From positions 5,321 through 69,320 of the forward strand of contig CAKOPC010000003.1 of NCBI GenBank assembly GCA_934098705.1: a stretch of 64,000 bases of DNA, given 5' to 3'. The stretch comes from an uncultured Bacilli bacterium (GTDB taxonomy: Bacteria > Bacillota_I > Bacilli_A > RF39 > UBA660). This document shows, in pieces, positions 21,910-56,401 of this stretch (its first letter is position 1; every line of letters begins with the position of its first letter). The notes under the pieces are model-generated. The model worked only from the letters and a program-made list of their open reading frames with translations. It did not search any database and was not told the origin of the DNA. The translations under genes were made by a program, and so were the position numbers.

Positions 21910-22612
21910 TAAATCCTCCTTCCAACCTTATTTGATTTTAAAAATATTAATTATTAAATCTTGTTTATTTTTCATTAAACCAAGCTTTTATTCACAATAA
22001 CCCTTTCCTCTTTTATCTCCATCATGGTATTCTTGCCCAGATAATCCACATGATAATCTAGCAATTTGATCCATGAATTCATTCCTTAAAAGAAGAACAT
22101 CCCAATTATAACCGTCGAAATTATAGCCATTATTAATACATACTTTACTAATGTTTGACCTTTATTATTTAACATATCTACTCCTATCTTTTACAACGTG
22201 TTATAAAATTATTCTATTTCAGCTTCATTATATCACATTTTGCTTGTTTTTCCTACTAATTTCGGTTGATTTATACATATACATTTGCAATAAAATTATG
22301 TAAAAAATAGCGTTTTTGCTTAAAAAAAATTATAATTTTGAATAATTTCACAAAATTTTATTTACGATTTAATTTTATTATTAAACAATGACATAATAAT
22401 TGCTCCAAAACTATTACCCAAAATTATAAACAACATTGATATTGCAGATTTAAATGACCAAGCTTTCACTAATGAAATATAGTCCATATTAGCAATTCTT
22501 GTATTTAGTATCAACAATGCTGTAATGATTATTCCTAATAAATTATCTAACAAAGTGAATATACGAGTTTTTTAAATACCCTAATTTATTTTCTAATATA
22601 TAGCTATTTCCT

Positions 22613-44218: not shown

Positions 44219-44464
44219 TTATTTTAATTCAAAAATTGATTTCAACACATTATAAATTACATCTACTACTATTGAATTTCCAGCCTGGTGATATAAATAA
44301 GTTTCTGCACATACCCTTTTTGCTCTATTATATTCTTCATCACTAAACCTTATAAGTCTCCAAGCCTCTTTGGATGTTAATTTCCTAATTATACAAATAA
44401 AAATGGAAATTTTAAAGTACAATTTCTTAGACTTTATATCTTTGACAGAATTAATGAAAAACAT
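44219..44464 (-). pseudogene. C-terminal fragment of a C5 cytosine DNA methyltransferase (motifs IX and X only)
   Basis: RKLTSKEAWRLIRFSDEEY (motif IX-like, LTxxExxRLxGFxD) and QAGNSIVVDVI (motif X, GNSV). The N-terminal catalytic motifs are absent. Confidence 0.55.
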
Positions 44465-44764: not shown

Positions 44765-46477
44765 CTAATCCCAAGTATTATTTTTCATACAAAAATCACA
44801 TGAATCATCCAAAAATATATTTGAATTATCTGTCGCAAAATTATTTGATAATCCCGTCATTAACAAGCCACATCCAAATAATTCTAAAGGATCATTGCCA
44901 ATTATTTTAATTGTTTTATCATAATCCCAATATAAATCAGTAGAATCAGCAAATAAATAACAATATTTGTAATCATTTTTTTTAAATTCTTCGTACTTTT
45001 TCTTTCCCTTAATTTTATAGTTTCCTCTTTCTCCAAAGAATTTATTAATATATGCTTGTCCATAAAAGAATGATTCTAATTCTTTTTCATTAGGAATACA
45101 TCTTTCTTCATTAAAAATTATTTCAACAATTCTTTTACAATTTATTACTGATATATTGCAATTATTATGTAGCCTTTTTATTAATGCTTTCTTAATTGAA
45201 TCAATACTATTTCCTGCTATTAACACTTCAGCATCTCTTACATTAAATTTATCATTTATTAATCTTAAATAGCCATCATAATAATGGTATTTTTTATTAT
45301 TAAATCCATTGGCTTCGAAAATACTACCGTTTTCTCCATAGAAGCAGTTATAAATACCATCTTTATATTTCATTAAAAATTCATGATTAGGATCTTCAAC
45401 TTTAATTATATTATTCAATACTCTATATAAATCTTTAAGTAAGCCATCTTGCTCAATGGCATATGAGTAATCTAAATCATTTTGATAAATTTTATGTGCT
45501 GGCTCTGTTCTAAGTTTTCTAATTTGATTGAGTTTTTCATAAGACATCATATTAAATAAGTCATATTGACCAAAATATGTTTTAAATAATCTTAAACCCC
45601 TGAACTCTTCTTTTTTTAGATCCTCTAAAGTAAACTCGTTATTATTTTTCATAGTTTCATATTCTTCTCTTATTTTCTTTTTTAAATCTTTTCCATTAAT
45701 ATTATCTAAAAAGATTTTTGCTAATTCCATCATAAAATTAAATCTATTCATTTTTGTGGGATAAAATAATGGCATGTAAAATTGTAATTCAGAAGCATCA
45801 TATTCATTATTAAACAACTTAAAATTATATTTACTTTCAAATATATAATTAACTATTCTGATTCCCTCTAAAAGAACATCATAAATACTTTCTTCATCTA
45901 TATCTAAGAACTCTCCCAAAAATAAGTTTTTAATATTGTATGAATGCATTTCATATCTTCTACCATCATCTTCAATCATAAATGGTTGTAATATTAACTG
46001 GGATTGTTCAGACAAATCTATCAAATCAACCATTAACATACCAATAACAATTTTATTTTCTTCTAAATCATGACATAAACATAAATCTTTTATATATACA
46101 TCTAATTTAGAATTTTCTGTTGAACAAACGTATCCTCTATAACCACTCCAATGAAAATGGAATTTAGGATTATTCAAAAACAAATGCATAATTTCCTCAT
46201 CGAAATATATAATATTCAATGCAAAATAATCTTTAATTAACTCTTTTTCAAAACGATTTAACCCTATTCTTTCAATTTCTTTTTTATAATTTTTATAAAA
46301 TTTTTTATCTAAGAAATAATAATCAGGTAATTCTTTATTTGTATATATGTATTTATACTTTAAAAGATAATTCTTTATATTTTCACTAACATTTAATCTG
46401 CATGCAAATCCACGGCCGTCAATAAAATTCTTACAAACAGCTAAAACCTGTTCATTATCTAATCTCTGCATTTTCAT
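44765..46477 (-). CDS. Large hypothetical protein (570 aa), no recognizable motifs; candidate restriction/defence cargo
   Basis: Own promoter and terminator. Sits between the R-M operon and the island end, next to the methyltransferase fragment. Confidence 0.4.
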   Translation of the reverse strand: MKMQRLDNEQVLAVCKNFIDGRGFACRLNVSENIKNYLLKYKYIYTNKELPDYYFLDKKFYKNYKKEIERIGLNRFEKELIKDYFALNIIYFDEEIMHLFLNNPKFHFHWSGYRGYVCSTENSKLDVYIKDLCLCHDLEENKIVIGMLMVDLIDLSEQSQLILQPFMIEDDGRRYEMHSYNIKNLFLGEFLDIDEESIYDVLLEGIRIVNYIFESKYNFKLFNNEYDASELQFYMPLFYPTKMNRFNFMMELAKIFLDNINGKDLKKKIREEYETMKNNNEFTLEDLKKEEFRGLRLFKTYFGQYDLFNMMSYEKLNQIRKLRTEPAHKIYQNDLDYSYAIEQDGLLKDLYRVLNNIIKVEDPNHEFLMKYKDGIYNCFYGENGSIFEANGFNNKKYHYYDGYLRLINDKFNVRDAEVLIAGNSIDSIKKALIKRLHNNCNISVINCKRIVEIIFNEERCIPNEKELESFFYGQAYINKFFGERGNYKIKGKKKYEEFKKNDYKYCYLFADSTDLYWDYDKTIKIIGNDPLELFGCGLLMTGLSNNFATDNSNIFLDDSCDFCMKNNTWD

Positions 46478-46544: not shown

Positions 46545-46580
46545 AGAAATTAAAAAAAGCCACTTTATTAGGTGGCATCA
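46545..46580 (-). terminator. Intrinsic terminator after the methyltransferase gene
   Basis: GCCACC-taataaa-GTGGC hairpin followed by a U-run on the minus-strand RNA. Confidence 0.4.
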
Positions 46581-47522
46581 TTTATTATCAAGGCTATTAA
46601 CATCTTCAAAAAATTCATTAATTGTTTTTACTCTATTGTATTCTTTCTTCAAATTGGTTTGAGACATATTTTCAAGATGTTTTTTAAAATAAACTTGAGA
46701 TTGCTTATCATTATCTATCATTATGCAATGTCTTCCCTCTTCTATACAAATTCTTCCTGTAGTTCCACTTCCAGCGAAAAAATCTAAAACTACTGCTCCT
46801 GGATATGATAATGATTTAACAAATCTTCGTATTATTTCAAGTGGCTTTTGAGTAGGATGCCCAACTCTCTCCAATGAATTACCATTTAGTCTTCCAATTT
46901 CCCATACATTAGTTGGATTCTTACCTTTTATAACATTTTCAGGAATCAATCTTTTATCTTTCAATGCATTTTTTAGTTCTTCAGGAGAATATTTTACTCT
47001 TACTGAATCTAAATCAAAATAATATTTATCAGTTTTTACCAACCATATTACTTCTTCATGCCTATTTGCAAAATACCTATGAGCAGACATACCATTCTTA
47101 TAATACCATATAATTGTATTTACTAATTTCCATTTTGTGTTATGCCTGCAATGATATATTATTTCAGTTAAATCTCCACTTCTTTCATTTCTAAATTGTG
47201 TTCCACCAAAGATAACCAAACTACCACTTTTTGATAAAACCCTATATGCTTCATCCAACCAAGTTCCAGCCCATTCCATATAATTCTCATATGTATCCCA
47301 ATCTGCTAAATCAAGATTATATGGTGGATCAATCAAGATTAACTGAATTGACTCATCAGGAATCTTTTTTAATGCTTTAACACAATCTTCATTAAATAGC
47401 AAAGATATTGATTTTTCTGGCATTTTAAAATCTACACTTGTTTTATTTTTTAAATTATCTTTATTTTTCTTCAAAATTGATCTTAGTGCAGAGTTATTAT
47501 GTGATTTATTATGTATAGCCAT
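46578..47522 (-). CDS. Beta-class amino (N6-adenine or N4-cytosine) DNA methyltransferase
   Basis: Motif IV DPPYN precedes motif I VLDFFAGSGTTG (beta-class order). 314 aa. Abuts the restriction gene. Confidence 0.8.
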   Translation of the reverse strand: MAIHNKSHNNSALRSILKKNKDNLKNKTSVDFKMPEKSISLLFNEDCVKALKKIPDESIQLILIDPPYNLDLADWDTYENYMEWAGTWLDEAYRVLSKSGSLVIFGGTQFRNERSGDLTEIIYHCRHNTKWKLVNTIIWYYKNGMSAHRYFANRHEEVIWLVKTDKYYFDLDSVRVKYSPEELKNALKDKRLIPENVIKGKNPTNVWEIGRLNGNSLERVGHPTQKPLEIIRRFVKSLSYPGAVVLDFFAGSGTTGRICIEEGRHCIMIDNDKQSQVYFKKHLENMSQTNLKKEYNRVKTINEFFEDVNSLDNK

Positions 47523-50192
47523 TTACAAAACCTCCACTTCTAATTTATTTTTCATTAAATCAAGACCAAGCTTTTCCTTTAAATATTCTACGTAATTACC
47601 ATTATCATTAATATAACTATCTGCTAGTTGTTTCATAGTAACATTTTCAGCATCGTCAAATATTATATCACTAAATAGCAATTTTTGTACTTCAATATCT
47701 GATCTTGTCGTATTTATAAATCCCATTATTTCAAGCAATGATACTATAAATGGAACCCTATGTTTAGATGCTTCGGCAGATGGAATTTCTATTCCCCGCG
47801 TTTCACAATAATGGATAGTTCTTTGACTTTCAAAAAACAAAGAATAACAATTTGCTTTAGAAATATTGTGCTTTCTACTATCAAAATATATAAATTGGAA
47901 CATTTGCTTTACTGCATCCATATTCAACATTAAATTAATAAATTGTTTTTTCTTAGTATAATCTTGATTTAAATACTCTTTTATTGGATTTACAAAATCA
48001 GATAAGTTCATTTCCCAACTAATTCCTTTTTCTTTATCCTTAAAACTTAAATCTATATGATTAATTAAATCTTTAAGTAACTCGTAAAGTTTTTCCCCAT
48101 TTTCTGTTAACTCTATAGTTTTTGTCTCATGACCAAGTTTTCTATCGTCAACAATTAACCCCATTCCCATCATTCCCTGAATTTTATATTTTGTTTGTCT
48201 TTGGAATTTTGCTAACGATTCATCCTTATCTAAGTTCCCTCTAAGTCTTATATACTTTTCATTCATATAACCTGTTGTATCATTTTCATATAATGATTTC
48301 AATATATATAATATATGTCCAAAATGTAATCCTTGAGGATAATGATATCCATTTTCTGTTACTTCCCCAATTTCCCTTAAAAATTTCATCCAACTACCAA
48401 AAGAAGAAATATATTTACCACTCTTGTATTTGCCATACATGTTTATATCATCTATACTTGGCTTTTTCTTTATATCAGTCATAACATCATAATAAGCAAC
48501 AATTAAATCATCCTTATTAACTTCATGATCCATTGCATCTTGTAAATCAAGAATTTCTTGAACTTCATCATCAAATTGAACTTCGCATTTTGGATTATAT
48601 TCATATATATTCTTTTCAAAAGCATTTGTACCTTCTTTATTTTTTGTTGTTACTTTTGTAGATAAATACTGTCTGACATAATTTGCTCGCTGATAATTAC
48701 TTATAAAATCCAAAATAATTACTTTATCTTTATTAGATGATATTCTTAATCCCCTACCTAGCTGTTGCATAAATACAGTTTTTGATTCAGTAGGTCTTAG
48801 AAACAGTAATGCTCTAACATTAGGAACATCAATACCTTCATTGAAAATATCAACGGTGAATGCAACTGCAATTTCATTATTTTTAAATGCTTTAATTAAT
48901 TCAGCCTTAGTTTCTGTAGTATTCGTTCCAGATGTTATTGCAACAGCACTTACACCTCTTTCATTAAACAATTTTGCCATTGCCTCTGCATGTCGTATTG
49001 TTACACAAAAGCCTATAGCTTTATCTCCATTACAAAACTGTTGATATTTTTCAAAAATCATTTCATTTCTAGCATTAATAATTAAGTGTCTCTCTAAATC
49101 GCTTTCATTATACTTGATACCATTTCTTCTGATATTTGTATAATCTATATTATCTTTTAATCCATGATATTCATATCCTACAAGGAAACCTCTATCTATA
49201 GCATCATTAATATCATATTCGCATACTTTTTGATAATCAAATAAAGATAGTATGTCTTTTTTATCAGTTCTATCTGGAGTGGCAGTAATTCCTAAAAAGA
49301 ATTTAGGTGTAAAATAATCTAATATTTTTCTATATGTTTTTGCTTCCCCATGATGAACTTCATCAACTATAATATAATCAAAGTATTCTTTACTAAATGA
49401 ATTTAATGTTTCATCTAAACAGAGAGAATCTTTAGATGCAAATAAAATTCTACAATCCCTAACATGTTCTTTTGTTTCTCCTGTTAATAAACCTAATATT
49501 TCATTTGGCCAAACATCTTCAAATGCATTTTTTGATTGTGTCAAAATATCTAATCTATGAACAATAAATAAAAACTTTGCATTAGGATTTTCCAAATAAT
49601 AATTATAGGCATCCATAGCACTTAAATAAGTTTTTCCTGTCCCTGTTGGCATAATAACTAAGCCTTTTGTCCAGCCTAAGTCTCTGCAATTTTTTAATTG
49701 AGGTAATACTTCTAACTGAATTGGATTCGGATCTATTTTTACATCTCCCAATAATTCTGGAGCATACTTTTTTAATGTCAAATTAATTTCATCAAAAATT
49801 CTCTGTCTCCACATAGGATCTTTCAATTGATTATATGAATATCTTCTTAATGTCCATCCATGAAATAATATTTCATTTTGTCGAAATAAATTATCATCAA
49901 ATTGTGCAAATGGAATAATGCCTTCAGCATGATATGTTTCACCATTTACTTCAAATGCAATTTTATTTCCCTCATCAGTTATTATCCCAAAATCAATTTG
50001 TCTTGCATGTCCTTCAGAATCAATAAATGGATACTGGGGAACTACTAATGTCATTTTTTCATTTCCTAAAATTGGAAACAAAAATTCTTTAACAAACAAT
50101 TTCTCACTCTCTGATATTATCTTGTTTTTATATATTTCTAAATACTCTTCACAAGTAATACTGCTTTTGTCTAACAATAAATTACAATTCAT
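47523..50192 (-). CDS. Restriction endonuclease subunit: N-terminal DUF559/Vsr-like PD-(D/E)xK nuclease fused to SF2 DEAH helicase (Type III Res-like) with long C-terminal domain
   Basis: KIAFEVNGETYH...GWTLRRYSYNQL (DUF559-type), Walker A VIMPTGTGKTY, DEAH box IIVDEVHH, motif VI QQLGRGLR. 889 aa. Confidence 0.65.
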   Translation of the reverse strand: MNCNLLLDKSSITCEEYLEIYKNKIISESEKLFVKEFLFPILGNEKMTLVVPQYPFIDSEGHARQIDFGIITDEGNKIAFEVNGETYHAEGIIPFAQFDDNLFRQNEILFHGWTLRRYSYNQLKDPMWRQRIFDEINLTLKKYAPELLGDVKIDPNPIQLEVLPQLKNCRDLGWTKGLVIMPTGTGKTYLSAMDAYNYYLENPNAKFLFIVHRLDILTQSKNAFEDVWPNEILGLLTGETKEHVRDCRILFASKDSLCLDETLNSFSKEYFDYIIVDEVHHGEAKTYRKILDYFTPKFFLGITATPDRTDKKDILSLFDYQKVCEYDINDAIDRGFLVGYEYHGLKDNIDYTNIRRNGIKYNESDLERHLIINARNEMIFEKYQQFCNGDKAIGFCVTIRHAEAMAKLFNERGVSAVAITSGTNTTETKAELIKAFKNNEIAVAFTVDIFNEGIDVPNVRALLFLRPTESKTVFMQQLGRGLRISSNKDKVIILDFISNYQRANYVRQYLSTKVTTKNKEGTNAFEKNIYEYNPKCEVQFDDEVQEILDLQDAMDHEVNKDDLIVAYYDVMTDIKKKPSIDDINMYGKYKSGKYISSFGSWMKFLREIGEVTENGYHYPQGLHFGHILYILKSLYENDTTGYMNEKYIRLRGNLDKDESLAKFQRQTKYKIQGMMGMGLIVDDRKLGHETKTIELTENGEKLYELLKDLINHIDLSFKDKEKGISWEMNLSDFVNPIKEYLNQDYTKKKQFINLMLNMDAVKQMFQFIYFDSRKHNISKANCYSLFFESQRTIHYCETRGIEIPSAEASKHRVPFIVSLLEIMGFINTTRSDIEVQKLLFSDIIFDDAENVTMKQLADSYINDNGNYVEYLKEKLGLDLMKNKLEVEVL

Positions 50193-50406
50193 TTTTATCC
50201 CCCTTATCTACTGAATATTCAACTATATCATCTAACTTGCAATTGAATACTTCACATATTTTCATTAATGTTTCCATTCTTACCATTTCATCTTTTCCCA
50301 TTTTAGCCATTTCGTTTGTTGTAATATCAGCTATTTCACATAATTTAGACTTATTCATGTTATTATCTATCAATAGCTTCCACAACTTTTTATAACTAAC
50401 TTTCAT
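50182..50406 (-). CDS. Small XRE-type HTH protein, probable R-M controller (C-protein)
   Basis: 74 aa HTH (LIDNNMNKSKLCEIADITTNEMAKMGKD). Its 3' end overlaps the restriction gene start by 11 nt. Confidence 0.5.
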   Translation of the reverse strand: MKVSYKKLWKLLIDNNMNKSKLCEIADITTNEMAKMGKDEMVRMETLMKICEVFNCKLDDIVEYSVDKGDKNEL

Positions 50407-50539
50407 ACCTTGCCTCCAATTGTTTTACATAATAATATTTTAACACATATAATTTATCTTTTCAATATTTTTTTGAATATTTCAATATATTTTTTTGCTA
50501 TTTACTTGCATTTTTATCTTTTTAGAGTGATTAATACAC

Positions 50540-50875
50540 ATGGAGGTATTTATGTTAAGAAAATGTACTGATGAAGATATAAGTGATGAAGAATGTGAAA
50601 AGGTTATTGATCCTTTTTATGAAAACTATGATAGTTATTTGGAAGAATATGTTATTCCTGAAGTAATAGCTTTTTATATTGCTAGCTCATTTTATAGAAA
50701 TGCTATGTGGAAAGCAACTTTTGAACAACATTTTAATTCTGCTTTTGATACATTTAATCTGATATGTAGAAATTATAAAAAAATGAAAGCTGAAGTTATT
50801 AAACTACTCAGATTAAAATATTCTCTAGAAATTATTAATAAGGATCCTTTAGACTTCAAAATAATCGAGTATTAG
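50540..50875 (+). CDS. Hypothetical protein
   Basis: 111 aa ORF with GGAGG RBS (ACATGGAGGTATTTATG). Confidence 0.35.
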   Translation: MEVFMLRKCTDEDISDEECEKVIDPFYENYDSYLEEYVIPEVIAFYIASSFYRNAMWKATFEQHFNSAFDTFNLICRNYKKMKAEVIKLLRLKYSLEIINKDPLDFKIIEY

Positions 50876-51051
50876 TATTAGCTAATGCTTTTTTATTGCA
50901 TCAAAAAAGGCTCACATTGAGCCAATAATTTCATCTTTATCAAATACTCTATTTTCCAAAAAACTCACGGAAAACTTAAAATTGTGTGAATTTGAGTGGG
51001 CTGTGGGTGGAGAAAAAAATAATTTTTTAGTATCACTACCCTAGGGGGAGT

Positions 51052-51420
51052 CTATTTACTCTCTATCATTTTTAATAATTCTTCTTTTGTTATTATCCCC
51101 TGTTCTGCTTCCTTATGATGCATAGGACATAATGTTATAAGATTTGTACTATCTAATCTTTTAGAATAATCTTCATCTATTGATACTATATGATGTACTT
51201 GTAAGTCTTTATAGTTAAACATAAATGGTGCTCCCTCATATCCATTTATACATGCCTGACATAAATATTTATCTCTTTTCTTTACTTCTTCTCTTTTTTG
51301 TTTCCATTCATATGTACTTCTAAATCTATCACTTTTACTACTCTTTTTATACCTATATGGTCTTTTACATACGATATTAAAGTCATGTATCTTTCCACAC
51401 ACACTACAAGTTTTTAACAT
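51052..51420 (-). CDS. HNH endonuclease
   Basis: CxxC...HHIVSIDED...N...CPMHH zinc-finger HNH pattern. Confidence 0.65.
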   Translation of the reverse strand: MLKTCSVCGKIHDFNIVCKRPYRYKKSSKSDRFRSTYEWKQKREEVKKRDKYLCQACINGYEGAPFMFNYKDLQVHHIVSIDEDYSKRLDSTNLITLCPMHHKEAEQGIITKEELLKMIESK

Positions 51421-51862
51421 TATTTAATAGTTTCCTATTCTTTTGTTCTATTTGTTTATTATGCTTAAGAAATGCTTTAATATCGTTTTCTACAAATTCT
51501 GGTAGATTTCCCTCATCTAACCACATAAGAGTTTTAAAACAGCTATTGCTAGCATGAGAATCTGTTAATTCTTCAACACCTTTTTTAAAGTATTCACTTT
51601 CTTTCATTTTATCTATGATTGAAATAATATACTTTTTATTTATTTCTTTGCATTTATCTTTTAATTGTGAAATTGTTGGAAAGTATTTTGATTCTGATAC
51701 TATTTCTTTTATAGCATTATTTAATGTTGAATAAGATACATCACTAAAATATTCAAACCAGCTTTCTAATTGTTCTTGATCCGTATTCTTGAAATAGCAA
51801 GCATTTAGATATTTCATACACTTAATAAAAGCAAAATGGGTCATTTTCATTTTCTTCTCCAT
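51404..51862 (-). CDS. Phage-type hypothetical protein (replication-module associated)
   Basis: 152 aa, overlaps both neighbours, in the replication gene block. Confidence 0.35.
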   Translation of the reverse strand: MEKKMKMTHFAFIKCMKYLNACYFKNTDQEQLESWFEYFSDVSYSTLNNAIKEIVSESKYFPTISQLKDKCKEINKKYIISIIDKMKESEYFKKGVEELTDSHASNSCFKTLMWLDEGNLPEFVENDIKAFLKHNKQIEQKNRKLLNNVKNL

Positions 51863-52661
51863 TTTGTCTTGCTTCTATCATTTCTTCTAATTCTTTCATA
51901 GAAATATCATTTAATGTTTTCTTCTTTACTGGTTGATTATAATAGTTTTCAAACTTATCTCCAAACAAAGTATATGGGTTTAAATGTACTACCATTTTAG
52001 TATCTTTCCATTCATAAAATTTCTTATCAATAACTATTTGAAAATCAAGTGTTTTATATCCTTTTTCTATCCAATTATTAACAAGACTTTTTATCTTTTC
52101 ATTTTCCCAATTGTATGAAGAATTAATTTTCTTATTTAAATAATCAATAACATCTTTTACGACAAAATCGTTACCAGACAAGATAGTTACATCTTCTCTC
52201 TTCTCCACTATATTATTTTTTTCTTCTCTTTTATTTTCTAGACTATTCTTTTCTTTACTTATCTTATCTATACTATTCTTGGTATCCATTTGGTTTCCAT
52301 CTGGTATACCATTGGTGTCCAACATAATATATTCATTATTATCAGCTATATCTAACCTACTAAATTCATTTTGAAAAATAGTAGGTCTATATCTATCATT
52401 TCTAACAGTATTATTTATTTTCCAATGTTTTATGGCGATCACATCAGAATCAAATTTATAAATAAAAGATTTGTCTATTAAAGATTGTAAATCTTCATTT
52501 GTAGCACCAACGAGCTTCATATAAGATCTATAGTTTTTAGATAGCCCATCATCATCTGCTAACATACCCATATGAAAATATAGACATTGAGCTTCAGCAG
52601 ATAGTTCTAAAAAGTCATCACTTGTTGTAACAACCTTATCAAACATTCTTTTTTGAGCCAC
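51822..52661 (-). CDS. Phage replisome-organizer-like / replication initiation protein
   Basis: N-terminal MAQKRMFDKVVTTSDDFLELSAEAQCLYFHMGMLADDDG (phage replisome organizer N-terminal-like); C-terminal TLFGDKFENYY block. Confidence 0.4.
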   Translation of the reverse strand: MAQKRMFDKVVTTSDDFLELSAEAQCLYFHMGMLADDDGLSKNYRSYMKLVGATNEDLQSLIDKSFIYKFDSDVIAIKHWKINNTVRNDRYRPTIFQNEFSRLDIADNNEYIMLDTNGIPDGNQMDTKNSIDKISKEKNSLENKREEKNNIVEKREDVTILSGNDFVVKDVIDYLNKKINSSYNWENEKIKSLVNNWIEKGYKTLDFQIVIDKKFYEWKDTKMVVHLNPYTLFGDKFENYYNQPVKKKTLNDISMKELEEMIEARQNGEENENDPFCFY

Positions 52662-52689
52662 AATTGTTTCCTTTTGATAAAGATGAAAT

Positions 52690-52953
52690 AAAATAACAAT
52701 TATTGTTTCTCATAAGCGGAAACCTCTTTTAGATAATTAATATCTATATTGAAATATTTTAAAACTTCAACCATAGGTACCAATCCTCTATTACGAACTT
52801 TGGAATCATCTCCATATAATGATATAGCAATTTAACTCCTAATGGCATATACCTTATTTCTTCCAACACTGCCAATTTTCATAATATCAGTTGCTGATGC
52901 CCACTGACTTGATACTACTTGTAATAATTGTTCTGCAGTTAGTTTTTCACTGT
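52690..52953 (-). pseudogene. Small phage-type gene interrupted by an in-frame stop
   Basis: MNSEKLTAEQLLQVVSSQWASATDIMKIGSVGRNKVYAIRS*IAISLYGDDSKVRNRGLVPMVEVLKYFNIDINYLKEVSAYEKQ* in a single frame. Confidence 0.3.
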
Positions 52954-53010
52954 TCATTCTTATCACTCTCCTTATTATTTAATAGTGTTTAAACTTTGCT
53001 AGACTTCTAA

Positions 53011-53144
53011 TTACAGTTTATATTGGAAATAATCATATATAAACCACCTACTTTCTACCTTTGATAACTACATTTTACATTTTAAATGGAATAATGTAAA
53101 TAGTTTTTGATAAACTTAATTTACTTTTTACAGTTTAAATGTAA
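53011..53144. promoter_or_regulatory. Three copies of a 17-bp palindromic operator (TTACAKTTTAWATKGWA) in the divergent lysogeny-switch region
   Basis: TTACAGTTTATATTGGA (53011), TTACATTTTAAATGGAA (53075), TTACAGTTTAAATGTAA (53128). TTACA...TGTAA inverted symmetry. Confidence 0.45.
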
Positions 53145-53199
53145 TTTTAGTTGACTTTAGGGAAAAATCGGTGTATATTGGTAACAGAGGTGATAAGTA

Positions 53200-53871
53200 A
53201 TGAATAGTAAAAATACTGATCCTAAAATATGCTTTGCTACTAATCTTAAAAAATACATGGAATTAAGAAATGTTAGTAGAAAGAAATTATCTGAAGATAT
53301 TAATATTAAATATTCAACTATATGCGAATGGTTAAAAGGTACGATGTTACCACGTGCAGATAAAATGGAAATAGTCGCAAATTACTTTAATACGACTTCA
53401 TCTAGATTATTAGAAGATCCAAATGCTGAATTATTGGTATATAAGTATCCTTTTGTAACTAAAATACCTGATGGATATACATTGGAACAAGCATCTGACG
53501 AATTTTTCTCTGGTTGGGGTGTTATTCAACATGTAAAACAAGTACCTAACCACTATGGATTAACAATTACTCATGAATGTAATCCTATGCAACCTCGTTA
53601 TGCTAAAGGTGAACCTGTTTCTTTTAAACTTACAAGCTATGTTTCTGATTGTGATTGCGATTATTTAATTAGAAGAAAAGGCCATGATGCAGAAATAGTA
53701 AGAATCTATGAAGACCAAGAGCCTCCTTTTATAATTGAAGATGATGAAAATGATGATCGTGAGATTATATATTATGTTATGATTCCTGTCTATAATGAAG
53801 AAAACAATTATGAACCATATCATACATTTAACTTAAGTGCTGATTATGAAATAATTGGAAAAGCAGAATAA
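53200..53871 (+). CDS. CI-like repressor (XRE HTH N-terminus plus C-terminal oligomerization/peptidase-like domain)
   Basis: HTH LKKYMELRNVSRKKLSEDINIKYSTICEWLKG. 223 aa. Divergent from the replication genes, upstream of the integrase. Confidence 0.5.
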   Translation: MNSKNTDPKICFATNLKKYMELRNVSRKKLSEDINIKYSTICEWLKGTMLPRADKMEIVANYFNTTSSRLLEDPNAELLVYKYPFVTKIPDGYTLEQASDEFFSGWGVIQHVKQVPNHYGLTITHECNPMQPRYAKGEPVSFKLTSYVSDCDCDYLIRRKGHDAEIVRIYEDQEPPFIIEDDENDDREIIYYVMIPVYNEENNYEPYHTFNLSADYEIIGKAE

Positions 53872-54015
53872 AAAAAGACCTACTGCGCCAACAGTAAGTC
53901 AAATTGGATAACCACAAAGTCTAGCAAACTTTAAACACTATTAGATAATAATGTAATTGGGTTTCCTTTTACATTATATCACTTTATTGAAAATCACACA
54001 AGAAAGGACGATATA

Positions 54016-55127
54016 ATGGGAGTATATAAAGCTAAAGATGGCAAAACTAAAGATGGTCGTATCTGGTTCTTTAAGTTAAGATATCAAGATATGGATGGTA
54101 GAAACAAACAATACAAATCAGGAAAATATGCTACTAAAAAAGAAGCAGAAGAAGCTGAACTTGAATTTAGATTAAAAATACATAGACATGAAAATATGGA
54201 TAAAATAACCTTAGATGAAATGATTGATATATTTATTGAGAATAGAACTTCTACTATTGAGGTTAAACCTAATACTCTATATAATTACGGAAATAAAAAA
54301 ACTCATTTAAAAAGTTTATTAAATATTAAATTAAAAGATTTTAATATCAATCACTATGATAATTGGAAAAAGCAAATGAATGAAACTAATATCTCAACAC
54401 GATATAAAAATGATATATTAAAATTTCTAAAATCAGTATTAAACTTTGCTATGACTTGGTATGATTTTAATCTTAATAAAGTTTATAATAAAATGACTAA
54501 GTTTAGTAACGCTTCTGATATACCAAAAGAAATGATGTATTTTACATATGATCAATGGAAACAATTTATTTCTGTTGAAACTAATTTACAAAGTAAAGTT
54601 ATGTTTGAAATATTATATTATTGTGGATTAAGAAAAGGTGAACTTAGAGGATTAACTTGGAGAAATGTTGATCTTGTTAATAAAACCTTATCCGTTAAGA
54701 AACATATCACAGATCGTGGTAGTTCGGTTAAAGAGTTCCAATTCTCCACTCCAAAGACTAAAAGTAGCATAGAACCCTACCACTTAATAAAGTTCTCTTA
54801 AACGACCTTAAAATGCTCAAAAATGAGGTATCTAAAGAGTATGGATTTAATGATGATTACTTTGTTATTGGCGATGCTTTCCCTGTTGCAAGTAATACTA
54901 TTACATCAAGAAAAAATCGTAACTGCAAATTAGCAGATGTACCTCAAATTAGGATCCATGACTTCAGACATTCTTGTGCATCTCTAATTGTTAATAATGG
55001 TGCTAATATAACTGTAGTAGCTAAATATCTAGGTCACACTAAAATAGAAGAAACTTTAAACACCTACACGCATCTTTTTAACTCTGCTTTAAATGAAGTA
55101 GTAGATTTAATTGATAAGTTAGAGTAA
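54016..55127 (+). pseudogene. Tyrosine recombinase/phage integrase, frameshifted near 54770-54815
   Basis: N-terminal SAM-like and core-binding region in ORF 54016..54801. Catalytic region continues in ORF 54813..55127 (HDFRHSCAS...GHTKIEETLNTYTH). The linking segment ...LPLNKVLLNDLKMLKNE is readable only in a shifted frame. Confidence 0.7.
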
Positions 55128-55163: not shown

Positions 55164-56401
55164 AGTAGACATTAATAAAAAAGAGGGACTACAAAATATG
55201 ATAAAATACATTTCCGAAAGGAGGTGTATTTTTATTATGGCAACAAAAGGACAAAAGTTTAAAACATTTACAAATGAAGAAAGAACTGAAATTGTAAGCA
55301 AATACATGTCAGGCAAATATTCATATGCAATTTTAGCAAAAGAATATAACATAAGTTGGAAAACTATAGAAAGCATGGTTAGAAAATTCAAAAAAACTGG
55401 ACTAACAATTAAAGACAAAAAAGGTAGAAATAATCAATCACATTTAACTAAAGAAGATTGGAAAGAAAGATATGAAATATTAAAAAAATACCAGGCCTTC
55501 CTCAAGGCACAACGAGAGAAAAAGTAACATTTATAAATTTGTATAGAAATAATTATAAACTTACTAACATGTGTGCCGTACTTAATATAAGTCCTAAAAC
55601 TTATTATAAGTATAGAAACAAGGAAGATCCTGATTATTATGATTATTTGATAATTAAAGAAATATTTGATGATTCTAAAGGTACATATGGATATCGTAGG
55701 ATTGTTGAATGCCTACTCCAAAAATATGGTGTAGTTATGAATGGAAAGAAGGTATTGAGAATAATGAAAAAATATAATCTAATGGCTGAATATATAAGAA
55801 AAGCTAAAATTAAACATAAGAACGAAAAAATTGAAGATAATGTTAAACCTAATTTATTAAATAGAAATTTCACTACTGATAATTCTAATAAAGTTTGGGA
55901 TACAGATGTAACGTATTTAATATTTAAAGGTTCAAGAGCTTATTTATCTACAATAATTGATTTATATGATAGACATGTAGTTTCATATGTAATATCAAAA
56001 AGAAATAATTTAAAGTTAGTTATGGATACTTTAAATAAAGCTATATCAAAAGAAAAAGATGTACATGGTTTAATCATTCACAGTGATCAAGGATTCCAAT
56101 ATACATCTTATGAGTACAAAGCTATATGTGAATCGAATGGAATACAAATTTCCATGTCACGAAAAGGAACGCCAATTGATGATTCTCCAATAGAAAGTTG
56201 GCATTCACTCCTTAAGAAAGAAACTCTGTACAACAATAATATTACATCTTTACAAGAATATATTCAACTTGTAGAAGAATGGATATTATTTTACAATACA
56301 ACTAGACTAAAGTCAAAAATTAAGAAAAAGAGAAAAAATTATACAAAAAGAGAAAAATAATTTTCTCTTTTTAATAACCCTCTTTTTTATTAATGTCTAC
56401 T
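55164..56401 (+). mobile_element. IS3-family insertion sequence (orfA 55237..55527, orfB 55539..56360) with perfect 24-bp terminal inverted repeats
   Basis: IRL AGTAGACATTAATAAAAAAGAGGG at 55164-55187 equals the reverse complement of 56378-56401. OrfA is an HTH protein. OrfB carries a DDE rve core (WDTDVTYL...IHSDQGFQYTS...E). Confidence 0.8.

Follow-up and report, generated by a model that had tools for sequence, protein, structure and literature searches.

The window analysed here, 64,000 nucleotides of contig CAKOPC010000003.1 from an uncultured Bacilli bacterium, carries on its minus strand a three-gene operon that encodes a small helix-turn-helix (HTH) protein, an 889-residue nuclease-helicase and a 314-residue DNA methyltransferase. 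On balance, we consider it probable that this operon specifies a restriction-modification system which depends on ATP, targets unmethylated GAATTC, combines a single-chain motor-nuclease with an M.RsrI-like methylase and is borne by a decaying integrative element. A preliminary description of the same DNA had proposed a non-canonical ATP-dependent restriction system, and this proposal is supported as probable by the homology of the large protein to the restriction enzyme SauUSI and by its linkage to the methylase in 57/57 assessable loci.

The three-gene restriction-modification operon is real: its arrangement of open reading frames (ORFs) is no chance product, as the helicase-methylase pair recurs in every related locus that could be assessed. 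The gene for the 74-residue HTH protein (50182-50406, minus strand, with its ATG at 50406; Pfam HTH_26, E=3.9e-18) overlaps the start of the nuclease-helicase gene (47523-50192, minus strand; ResIII 6e-38, Helicase_C 1.5e-13), as the preliminary description had noted, and the overlap between the HTH stop codon and the start of the large gene measures 11 nt (ATGAATTGTAA). The methyltransferase gene (46578-47522, minus strand; N6_N4_Mtase 3.4e-57) indeed follows immediately, its ATG abutting the stop codon of the 889-residue gene with zero spacer. An M.RsrI-like gene lies directly downstream of the large gene and on the same strand in all 57 assessable related loci, which comprise 49 loci from metagenome and viral scans seeded with the C-terminal domain of the large protein, plus L001, L003, L005, L081-L083, L085 and L086; six more loci end too early for linkage to be assessed. 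Gene overlap is frequent among the family loci. The named hosts of linked loci belong to several phyla and include Bdellovibrionales, a Doudnabacteria metagenome-assembled genome (MAG), a cyanobacterium and Pedobacter. This strict linkage, together with SauUSI being the nearest solved relative of the large protein, speaks against the possibility, raised at the outset, of a DNA repair helicase that is unlinked to the methyltransferase in other genomes.

Within the operon, the methylase is the sole protein with a clear place in a known family. Its DPPY motif precedes FAGSGTT, which is the motif order of the beta class, and the protein aligns with M.RsrI (PDB 1eg2) at E=1.6e-95 over residues 5-288, collinearly along the full length. 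Identity to M.RsrI is 52.5% overall and 61% across the central stretch from DPPY to FxGxG (residues 106-215). The window methylase, M.RsrI and the methylase of the related locus L149 have their N-terminal NKSH.N motif and their length in common. The best PADLOC model was MTase_II (1.2e-98), while MTase_III reached just 1.3e-13. Sequence thus identifies the 314-residue protein as an orthologue, over its full length, of M.RsrI, a Type II N6-methyladenine (m6A) enzyme. The preliminary description had called it a short beta-class methylase, too small for a Type III Mod protein, and this holds; the implied comparison with a shortened Mod does not, since the enzyme is complete as an M.RsrI orthologue. 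M.RsrI modifies the inner adenine of GAATTC (PMC7544214), and the window methylase most likely modifies the same adenine on both strands of the host DNA. Two further observations bear indirectly on GAATTC as its site, namely the specific depletion of this hexamer and the presence of a 60%-identical methylase at L149, a locus that also holds an EcoRI orthologue.

The 64-kb window has 2 GAATTC sites, whereas 12.4 (maximal-order Markov model) to 18.9 (base composition) would be expected, and GAATTC is its most depleted palindrome among those with a sizeable expectation. The two sites lie at positions 22075 and 36532, and the operon has 0. Hexamers that differ by one base were undepleted, with found and expected counts of 35 and 33 for GAATTT, 40 and 42 for AAATTC, 9 and 11 for GAATTG, and 21 and 22 for CAATTC. 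When the window was taken together with 11 family loci, GAATTC was the most depleted of 60 palindromes (25 found versus 60 expected). By comparison, 75 control loci, which hold SauUSI-like relatives without the methylase, contained 296 GAATTC sites versus 307 expected (p about 1e-6). The depletion fits GAATTC-directed restriction in the hosts. A relaxed specificity of the RAATTY type was also considered and is unsupported by the depletion data.

The 889-residue protein has a SauUSI-like layout, consisting of an N-terminal nuclease, a superfamily 2 (SF2) motor, a coupler and a C-terminal domain. The SF2 DExH motor (residues about 150-520; 48633..49745, minus strand) was delimited by matches to ResIII, Helicase_C, SauUSI and PADLOC mREase_IV. 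The protein has retained the complete set of SF2 motifs (Walker A PTGTGKT, DEVH, TATP, QQLGRGLR), and the helicase part of the preliminary description is thereby confirmed. The motor is followed by a helical coupler (residues about 521-605; 48378..48632, minus strand), which includes a Pfam HNH_repeat match (residues 560-609). The SauUSI match (7clg, E=3.9e-71) places query residues 134-606 on SauUSI residues 202-666, and residue 666 of SauUSI falls inside the first coupler subdomain (PMC7913695). It is this homology of residues 134-606 that explains the Type IV label assigned by PADLOC (mREase_IV 1.2e-74), the REase_III model scoring just 1.3e-4. The NCBIfam EcoAI R model gave 138 bits at a cut-off of 550, and Pfam searches of the 889-residue protein returned neither a methylase domain nor a match to PLDc or DUF3427. 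The proper comparator for this protein is SauUSI or a Type ISP enzyme, rather than Res.

The N-terminal domain (residues 1-145; 49758..50192, minus strand) resembles PD-(D/E)xK nucleases of the Vsr/DUF559/MTES_1575 kind, as indicated by family conservation, Pfam, and AlphaFold/Foldseek comparisons. Residues D58, D67, E81 and H88 are invariant among relatives, and N83 and E85 nearly so. The motif KIAFEVNGETYH...GWTLRRYSY, from which a Vsr/DUF559-type nuclease had been proposed, is present, and its key residues D67, E81, G84, Y87, H88, R117 and S119 are invariant in the family. The evidence for the family assignment itself is weaker. Pfam MTES_1575 matched below threshold (E=0.0065 for the window protein; E<=0.01 in 9/17 relatives, best 1.4e-4), and the Foldseek matches of the AlphaFold model (pLDDT, the predicted local distance difference test, 83) to PD-(D/E)xK structures were consistent but weak, all with E>=0.005; they include the DUF559 structure 3hrl (prob 0.97, TM 0.67 on target) and the Vsr-like domain of I-Bth0305I (prob 0.96). 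The position of this domain at the N-terminus, unlike that of the nuclease in Res, was correctly recognised in the preliminary description. A sister family of about 760 residues (L017, L036, L039 and L073) has the MTES_1575-like nuclease and the motor in common with the window protein, ends in another, unannotated C-terminal region of about 260 residues, and lies without an adjacent M.RsrI-like methylase; here the same chassis apparently bears another reader.

Residues 606-889 (47526..48377, minus strand), a stretch of about 280 residues on which the preliminary description is silent, form a new C-terminal domain, which we regard as a putative reader of unmethylated GAATTC. Its AlphaFold model (pLDDT 92.7) consists of helical and winged-helix-like units. 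When 1.84 billion representative proteins were searched with these residues, only 90 were recovered, and these fall into three architectures: the motor form described above; a PLD form of about 475-550 residues, in which an NgoFVII-like PLD nuclease is followed by the C-terminal domain; and an HNH form of about 394-480 residues, in which the domain is followed by an HNH nuclease. The motifs PQG..GH, RQ.KYK, DDR and HR.P are conserved throughout the three forms. Five loci with PLD or HNH fusions (PLD, L087/L088 and L145; HNH, L089 and L149) adjoin M.RsrI-like methylases that are 50-60% identical to that of the window, and the two of these methylases that were checked against the PDB matched M.RsrI at 1e-110 and 1e-131. 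At L149 (1556-5138), the 394-residue HNH form lies between the M.RsrI-like methylase and the EcoRI orthologue (E=7e-90 to EcoRI), so a single methylase apparently serves two unrelated nucleases. At L150 an HNH form is again found beside an EcoRI-family gene, on a contig that ends before any methylase. Because one and the same domain is joined to three unrelated nucleases and tracks one methylase family, we interpret it as a specificity module of restriction enzymes; the domain is portable and is probably the site reader.

Taken together, these features suggest the following mechanism. The methylase would protect GAATTC in the host DNA, and the C-terminal domain would bind GAATTC solely when it is unmethylated. 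Binding of the site would switch on the SF2 motor, leading to ATP-driven movement along double-stranded DNA. The N-terminal nuclease would then cut away from the site, probably upon collision or dimerisation of enzymes, as in Type ISP or SauUSI.

Several observations weigh against this mechanism. The window itself supplies much of the depletion signal, and homology-based site calls can mislead, as with M.CjeNI, for which GAATTC was predicted and RAATTY is the actual site. The 57 linked loci include near-duplicates of one another (e.g. L090/L091, L093/L094 and L116/L139). In the N-terminal domain, the family has Asn (EVNG) at the position where the 'ExDG' motif of DUF559 carries Asp, so that its competence to cut is plausible but unproven. 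A fold search with the model of the C-terminal domain gave nothing significant in the PDB (best Foldseek E=1.1), the top non-significant neighbours being TubR, the BpuJI recognition domain and BrxA, and for this reason we infer rather than observe that the domain binds DNA. Finally, the restriction gene precedes the methylase gene, at some loci without an HTH gene, which would be risky for an enzyme that acts independently and leaves room for its dependence on the methylase.

Dependence on the methylase is the essence of the alternative that survives best, although we judge it unlikely. It holds that the proteins form a Type III-like holoenzyme in which the C-terminal domain docks on a methylase dimer, the dimer supplies recognition, and restriction needs the complex. 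Protein-protein co-evolution would explain the strict linkage, the gene overlap and the co-occurrence of domain and methylase equally well, and a restriction-first order without a regulator would be safer if the enzyme were inert without the methylase. The lack of a significant DNA-binding fold match for the C-terminal domain also sits well with docking. On the other hand, the methylase has the same length and NKSH.N motif as M.RsrI and the L149 methylase, and thus no extra docking module, and the natural partner of M.RsrI is an independently acting EcoRI-like enzyme. Divergent copies of the C-terminal domain (25-28% identity) adjoin quite different methylases, of 608 and 633 residues. The conserved R/Q/K/Y helix and the winged-helix-like elements resemble a DNA reader, and the equivalent position in SauUSI is occupied by a direct DNA reader (PMC7913695). 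A palindromic site would moreover be fully methylated, unlike Type III sites.

As for Type III itself, EcoP15I resembles the window system in pairing a beta-class methylase with a helicase-nuclease subunit in one operon and in its ATP dependence. However, Mod is about twice as long as the window methylase and has an internal target domain, the gene order is mod-res, and Res has its nuclease at the C-terminus and no DNA reader; the PADLOC Type III models also scored far lower here. A Type III classification is excluded by the size and identity of the methylase and by the position of the nuclease. The earlier judgement that the architecture lies outside Type III Mod/Res therefore stands, on the basis of the 314-residue methylase, the N-terminal nuclease and the weak Type III model scores. 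Type I is likewise a poor match: the score for EcoAI R, an HsdR protein, lies under the cut-off, and hsdM/hsdS-like genes were not seen among the neighbours in the loci examined (window, L081-L083, L085 and L086).

It is very improbable that the large protein is a Type IV, modification-dependent enzyme situated beside an unrelated or orphan methylase. The PADLOC mREase_IV match (E=1.2e-74) and the Type IV nature of SauUSI, its nearest relative of solved structure, both point in this direction, but the match spans the motor and coupler alone (residues 134-606), and the PLD nuclease and the DUF3427/SRA reader of SauUSI are both missing. Nor did Foldseek detect an SRA-like match for the C-terminal model. 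Linkage to one methylase family in 57/57 assessable loci is unexpected for an attacker of modified DNA, and an enzyme attacking GA(m6A)TTC beside the producer of this very modification would be suicidal. What the window protein and SauUSI (PDB 7CLG) do have in common is a single chain made up of a nuclease, an SF2 DExH motor, a helical coupler and a C-terminal target domain. In contrast, the nuclease of SauUSI is of the PLD type, while that of the window protein is Vsr/DUF559-like, and the DUF3427/SRA reader is unrelated to the C-terminal domain found here. Furthermore, SauUSI has no partner methylase and attacks 5-methylcytosine DNA, whereas an m6A methylase invariably accompanies the enzyme described here, which must leave methylated DNA intact.

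Other known systems resemble the GAATTC-directed motor-nuclease system in part. The Type IIP RsrI/EcoRI systems, which act on GAATTC, correspond to it in that its methylase is orthologous to M.RsrI, GAATTC is depleted in the hosts and an EcoRI orthologue is present at one related locus. They differ in the restriction partner, which here is an 889-residue ATP-dependent motor-nuclease without similarity to the EcoRI and RsrI endonucleases. The Type ISP enzymes LlaGI and LlaBIII also have an N-terminal PD-(D/E)xK nuclease, an SF2 translocase, a coupler and a reader of unmodified sites; they cut by collision of translocating enzymes (PMC4666363), which is the likeliest analogue for cutting by the present enzyme. 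Unlike it, they carry a gamma-class methylase and a target domain within the chain and recognise asymmetric sites, whereas the window system has a separate beta-class Type II methylase and probably a palindromic site.

The nearest precedent for a SauUSI-like ATPase-nuclease turned on unmethylated DNA is MANTIS, a BREX-related four-gene system in which a SauUSI-like PLD ATPase-nuclease acts against unmethylated DNA (bioRxiv 10.64898/2026.09.23.753747). Targeting by MANTIS, however, needs MtsA (AAA+), MtsB and the large methylase MtsC, none of which is present here: no MtsA/BrxC-like AAA+ ATPase, MtsB or large PglX/MtsC-type methylase was found in the operon or conserved nearby. MtsD also differs in having a PLD nuclease and no target domain. 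In CglI/NgoAVII, a Type II-like methylase is paired with NTP-dependent restriction that involves a DEAD-family ATPase (PMC5737866). This pairing recalls the window system, although CglI/NgoAVII have one protein for nuclease and DNA binding and another for the helicase, while the window system unites these functions in a single chain, with another nuclease and another reader. Despite its Type ISP/SauUSI-like motor-nuclease, the system belongs to none of Type I, ISP, III, IV, MANTIS or CglI.

In the literature searched, we found no description of an EcoRI-site-type methylase combined with a SauUSI-like motor-nuclease; a listing in REBASE as a putative system is possible. We give about even chances to the wider proposition that the operon represents an undescribed class, in which a translocating nuclease reads unmethylated GAATTC by means of a new, winged-helix-like domain without relation to EcoRI, this domain acting as a portable reader in three chassis (PD-(D/E)xK plus motor, PLD and HNH) and the motor form being mislabelled as Type IV. 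If so, the SauUSI-type chassis would reach beyond Type IV, to restriction of the classical kind that is blocked by methylation and has an ordinary Type II methylase as its partner. Annotation pipelines would then be calling such loci 'Type IV enzyme plus orphan or Type II methylase' and miscounting both. The C-terminal domain would constitute a second, structurally independent way of reading GAATTC and sensing its N6-methyladenine, and as a compact module it might provide a methylation-sensitive DNA-binding tool. Since the family is common in metagenomes and occurs in several phyla, a sizeable part of the restriction landscape would so far have gone unrecognised.

The 120 best clusters of the large protein were almost all about 880-930 residues long, at least 50% identical and with at least 93% query coverage, two of them being fragments; named family members came from Pedobacter, Cyclobacteriaceae, Christiangramia and the Doudnabacteria MAG. 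A scan of genome contigs with full-length alignment yielded mostly SauUSI-like relatives and only 5 true orthologues, since its patterns had been picked from the motor, and the scan was therefore repeated with the C-terminal domain. The family loci differ in their flanking genes, among which defence genes are frequent (SIR2+DUF87, TIR, HEPN). At four loci (L130:5875-7755, L140:7740-9485, L141:9622-10989 and L143:7759-9522), a second, larger ORF of about 450-630 residues with weak similarity to the window methylase sits just past the M.RsrI-like gene. In a Waterburya MAG (L005:5983-9043), the restriction gene is in three pieces and query residues 72-298 are missing, while the downstream methylase is intact; this could be due to an insertion, to masked sequence or to a pseudogene.

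The 74-residue HTH protein is of the Cro/C1 type (NCBIfam VanU-like, 3e-19, below cut-off). Upstream of its gene, all on the minus strand, are a GGAGG ribosome-binding site (50413-50417), a promoter-like site (50437..50465; TTGAAA-17 nt-TAAAAT with an extended TG, 10/12 consensus matches) and an inverted repeat, TTGAA-ATA-TTCAA (50473..50485), which was read from the sequence as a candidate HTH operator. A further ATATTGAA copy (50461-50468) overlaps the -35 hexamer. Both repeat copies are kept in L081, a locus with 87% identity whose adjacent bases differ. Small HTH genes, homologous or analogous, lie upstream in L081, L082, L085, L090, L091 and L140, while L083 and L086 have no upstream HTH gene. 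At the Pedobacter locus (L082) the HTH protein is a different one (HTH_3) and a perfect palindrome, TTGACA-TATAG-TGTCAA, precedes its gene; at L085 an HTH_26 gene lies 160 bp upstream of the large gene. An exchangeable and optional regulator is typical of C proteins, and the position of the gene and the inverted repeat upstream of it point to a putative controller role. The HTH protein would bind the inverted repeat in the promoter and so delay or limit expression of the restriction gene upon entry into a new host.

At its other end the operon is closed by a terminator-like hairpin (GCCACCTAATAAAGTGGC, then a T-run; 46559..46576, minus strand) located 2 nt past the methylase stop codon, and a further terminator-like site (50923-50909) closes the upstream genes. 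Six terminator-like sites were found in the region versus 1.2 expected from shuffles. Promoter-like matches, by contrast, were no more frequent in the region than in shuffled sequence, so that only the position of the site ahead of the HTH gene is suggestive. From the promoter-like site, the operon terminator and the terminator of the upstream module, we regard the HTH gene, the large gene and the methylase gene as a transcription unit of their own. Rfam and tRNA scans of the window gave no matches.

The operon is preceded on the same strand by HNH, replication and small genes, and cI-like repressor and integrase genes are divergent from it. The tyrosine integrase gene (54016-55127, plus strand) is frameshifted near 54780-54800, its sequence KTKSSI / RTLPL continuing in the other frame, and an IS3-type two-ORF transposase (55198-56360, plus strand) lies immediately past the split integrase. 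L081 has the same layout as the window, with an intact integrase of 374 residues. L091, at 98-99% identity, still has the operon and an adjoining 570-residue ORF and is without the 4.3-kb integrase/repressor/replication/HNH module (window 50746-55075). Of the integrase 3' end, a 54-bp remnant is left in L091 (L091:1595-1647); this contig also truncates a divergent ORF of 111 residues (window 50540-50875) and looks like a deletion derivative. Given the integrase frameshift, the intact layout of L081 and the loss of the module in L091, we conclude that the operon is carried as cargo by an integrative element, and that in this lineage the element is decaying.

That the pair instead consists of early-region, phage-like genes without a defence role, i.e. 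a replication/recombination helicase and an anti-restriction orphan methylase, is scarcely credible. In the window and L081 the genes do come after a module of integrase, cI-like repressor, replication and HNH genes, and six related loci are on contigs classed as viral. But 50,697 phage records and 72,556 plasmids yielded no full-length homologue of the large protein, many chromosomal contexts harbour the pair without such a module, the near-identical L091 keeps the operon with the module lost, the operon is equipped with a promoter-like site and terminators of its own, and an architecture of nuclease plus portable domain is typical of restriction enzymes. With no full-length match in either collection, a phage or plasmid origin of the helicase was likewise rejected.

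On the far side of the operon, an 81-residue ORF (44219-44464, minus strand) shows similarity to C5 cytosine methyltransferases at their C-terminal end only (Pfam DNA_methylase 275-323) and is probably a gene remnant, its N-terminal part not being seen nearby. The 570-residue ORF (44765-46477, minus strand) lies directly downstream of the operon and has its own terminator (44590-44575). Pfam, NCBIfam and PADLOC gave no match for it, and its relatives make up a narrow ORFan family of 90 clusters, all at least 50% identical. We considered it as a fourth component and rejected this, since a terminator lies in between, there is no family match and the ORF is absent at the other family loci examined; its own 90%-identity cluster is also larger than that of the helicase, with 201 members versus 33.

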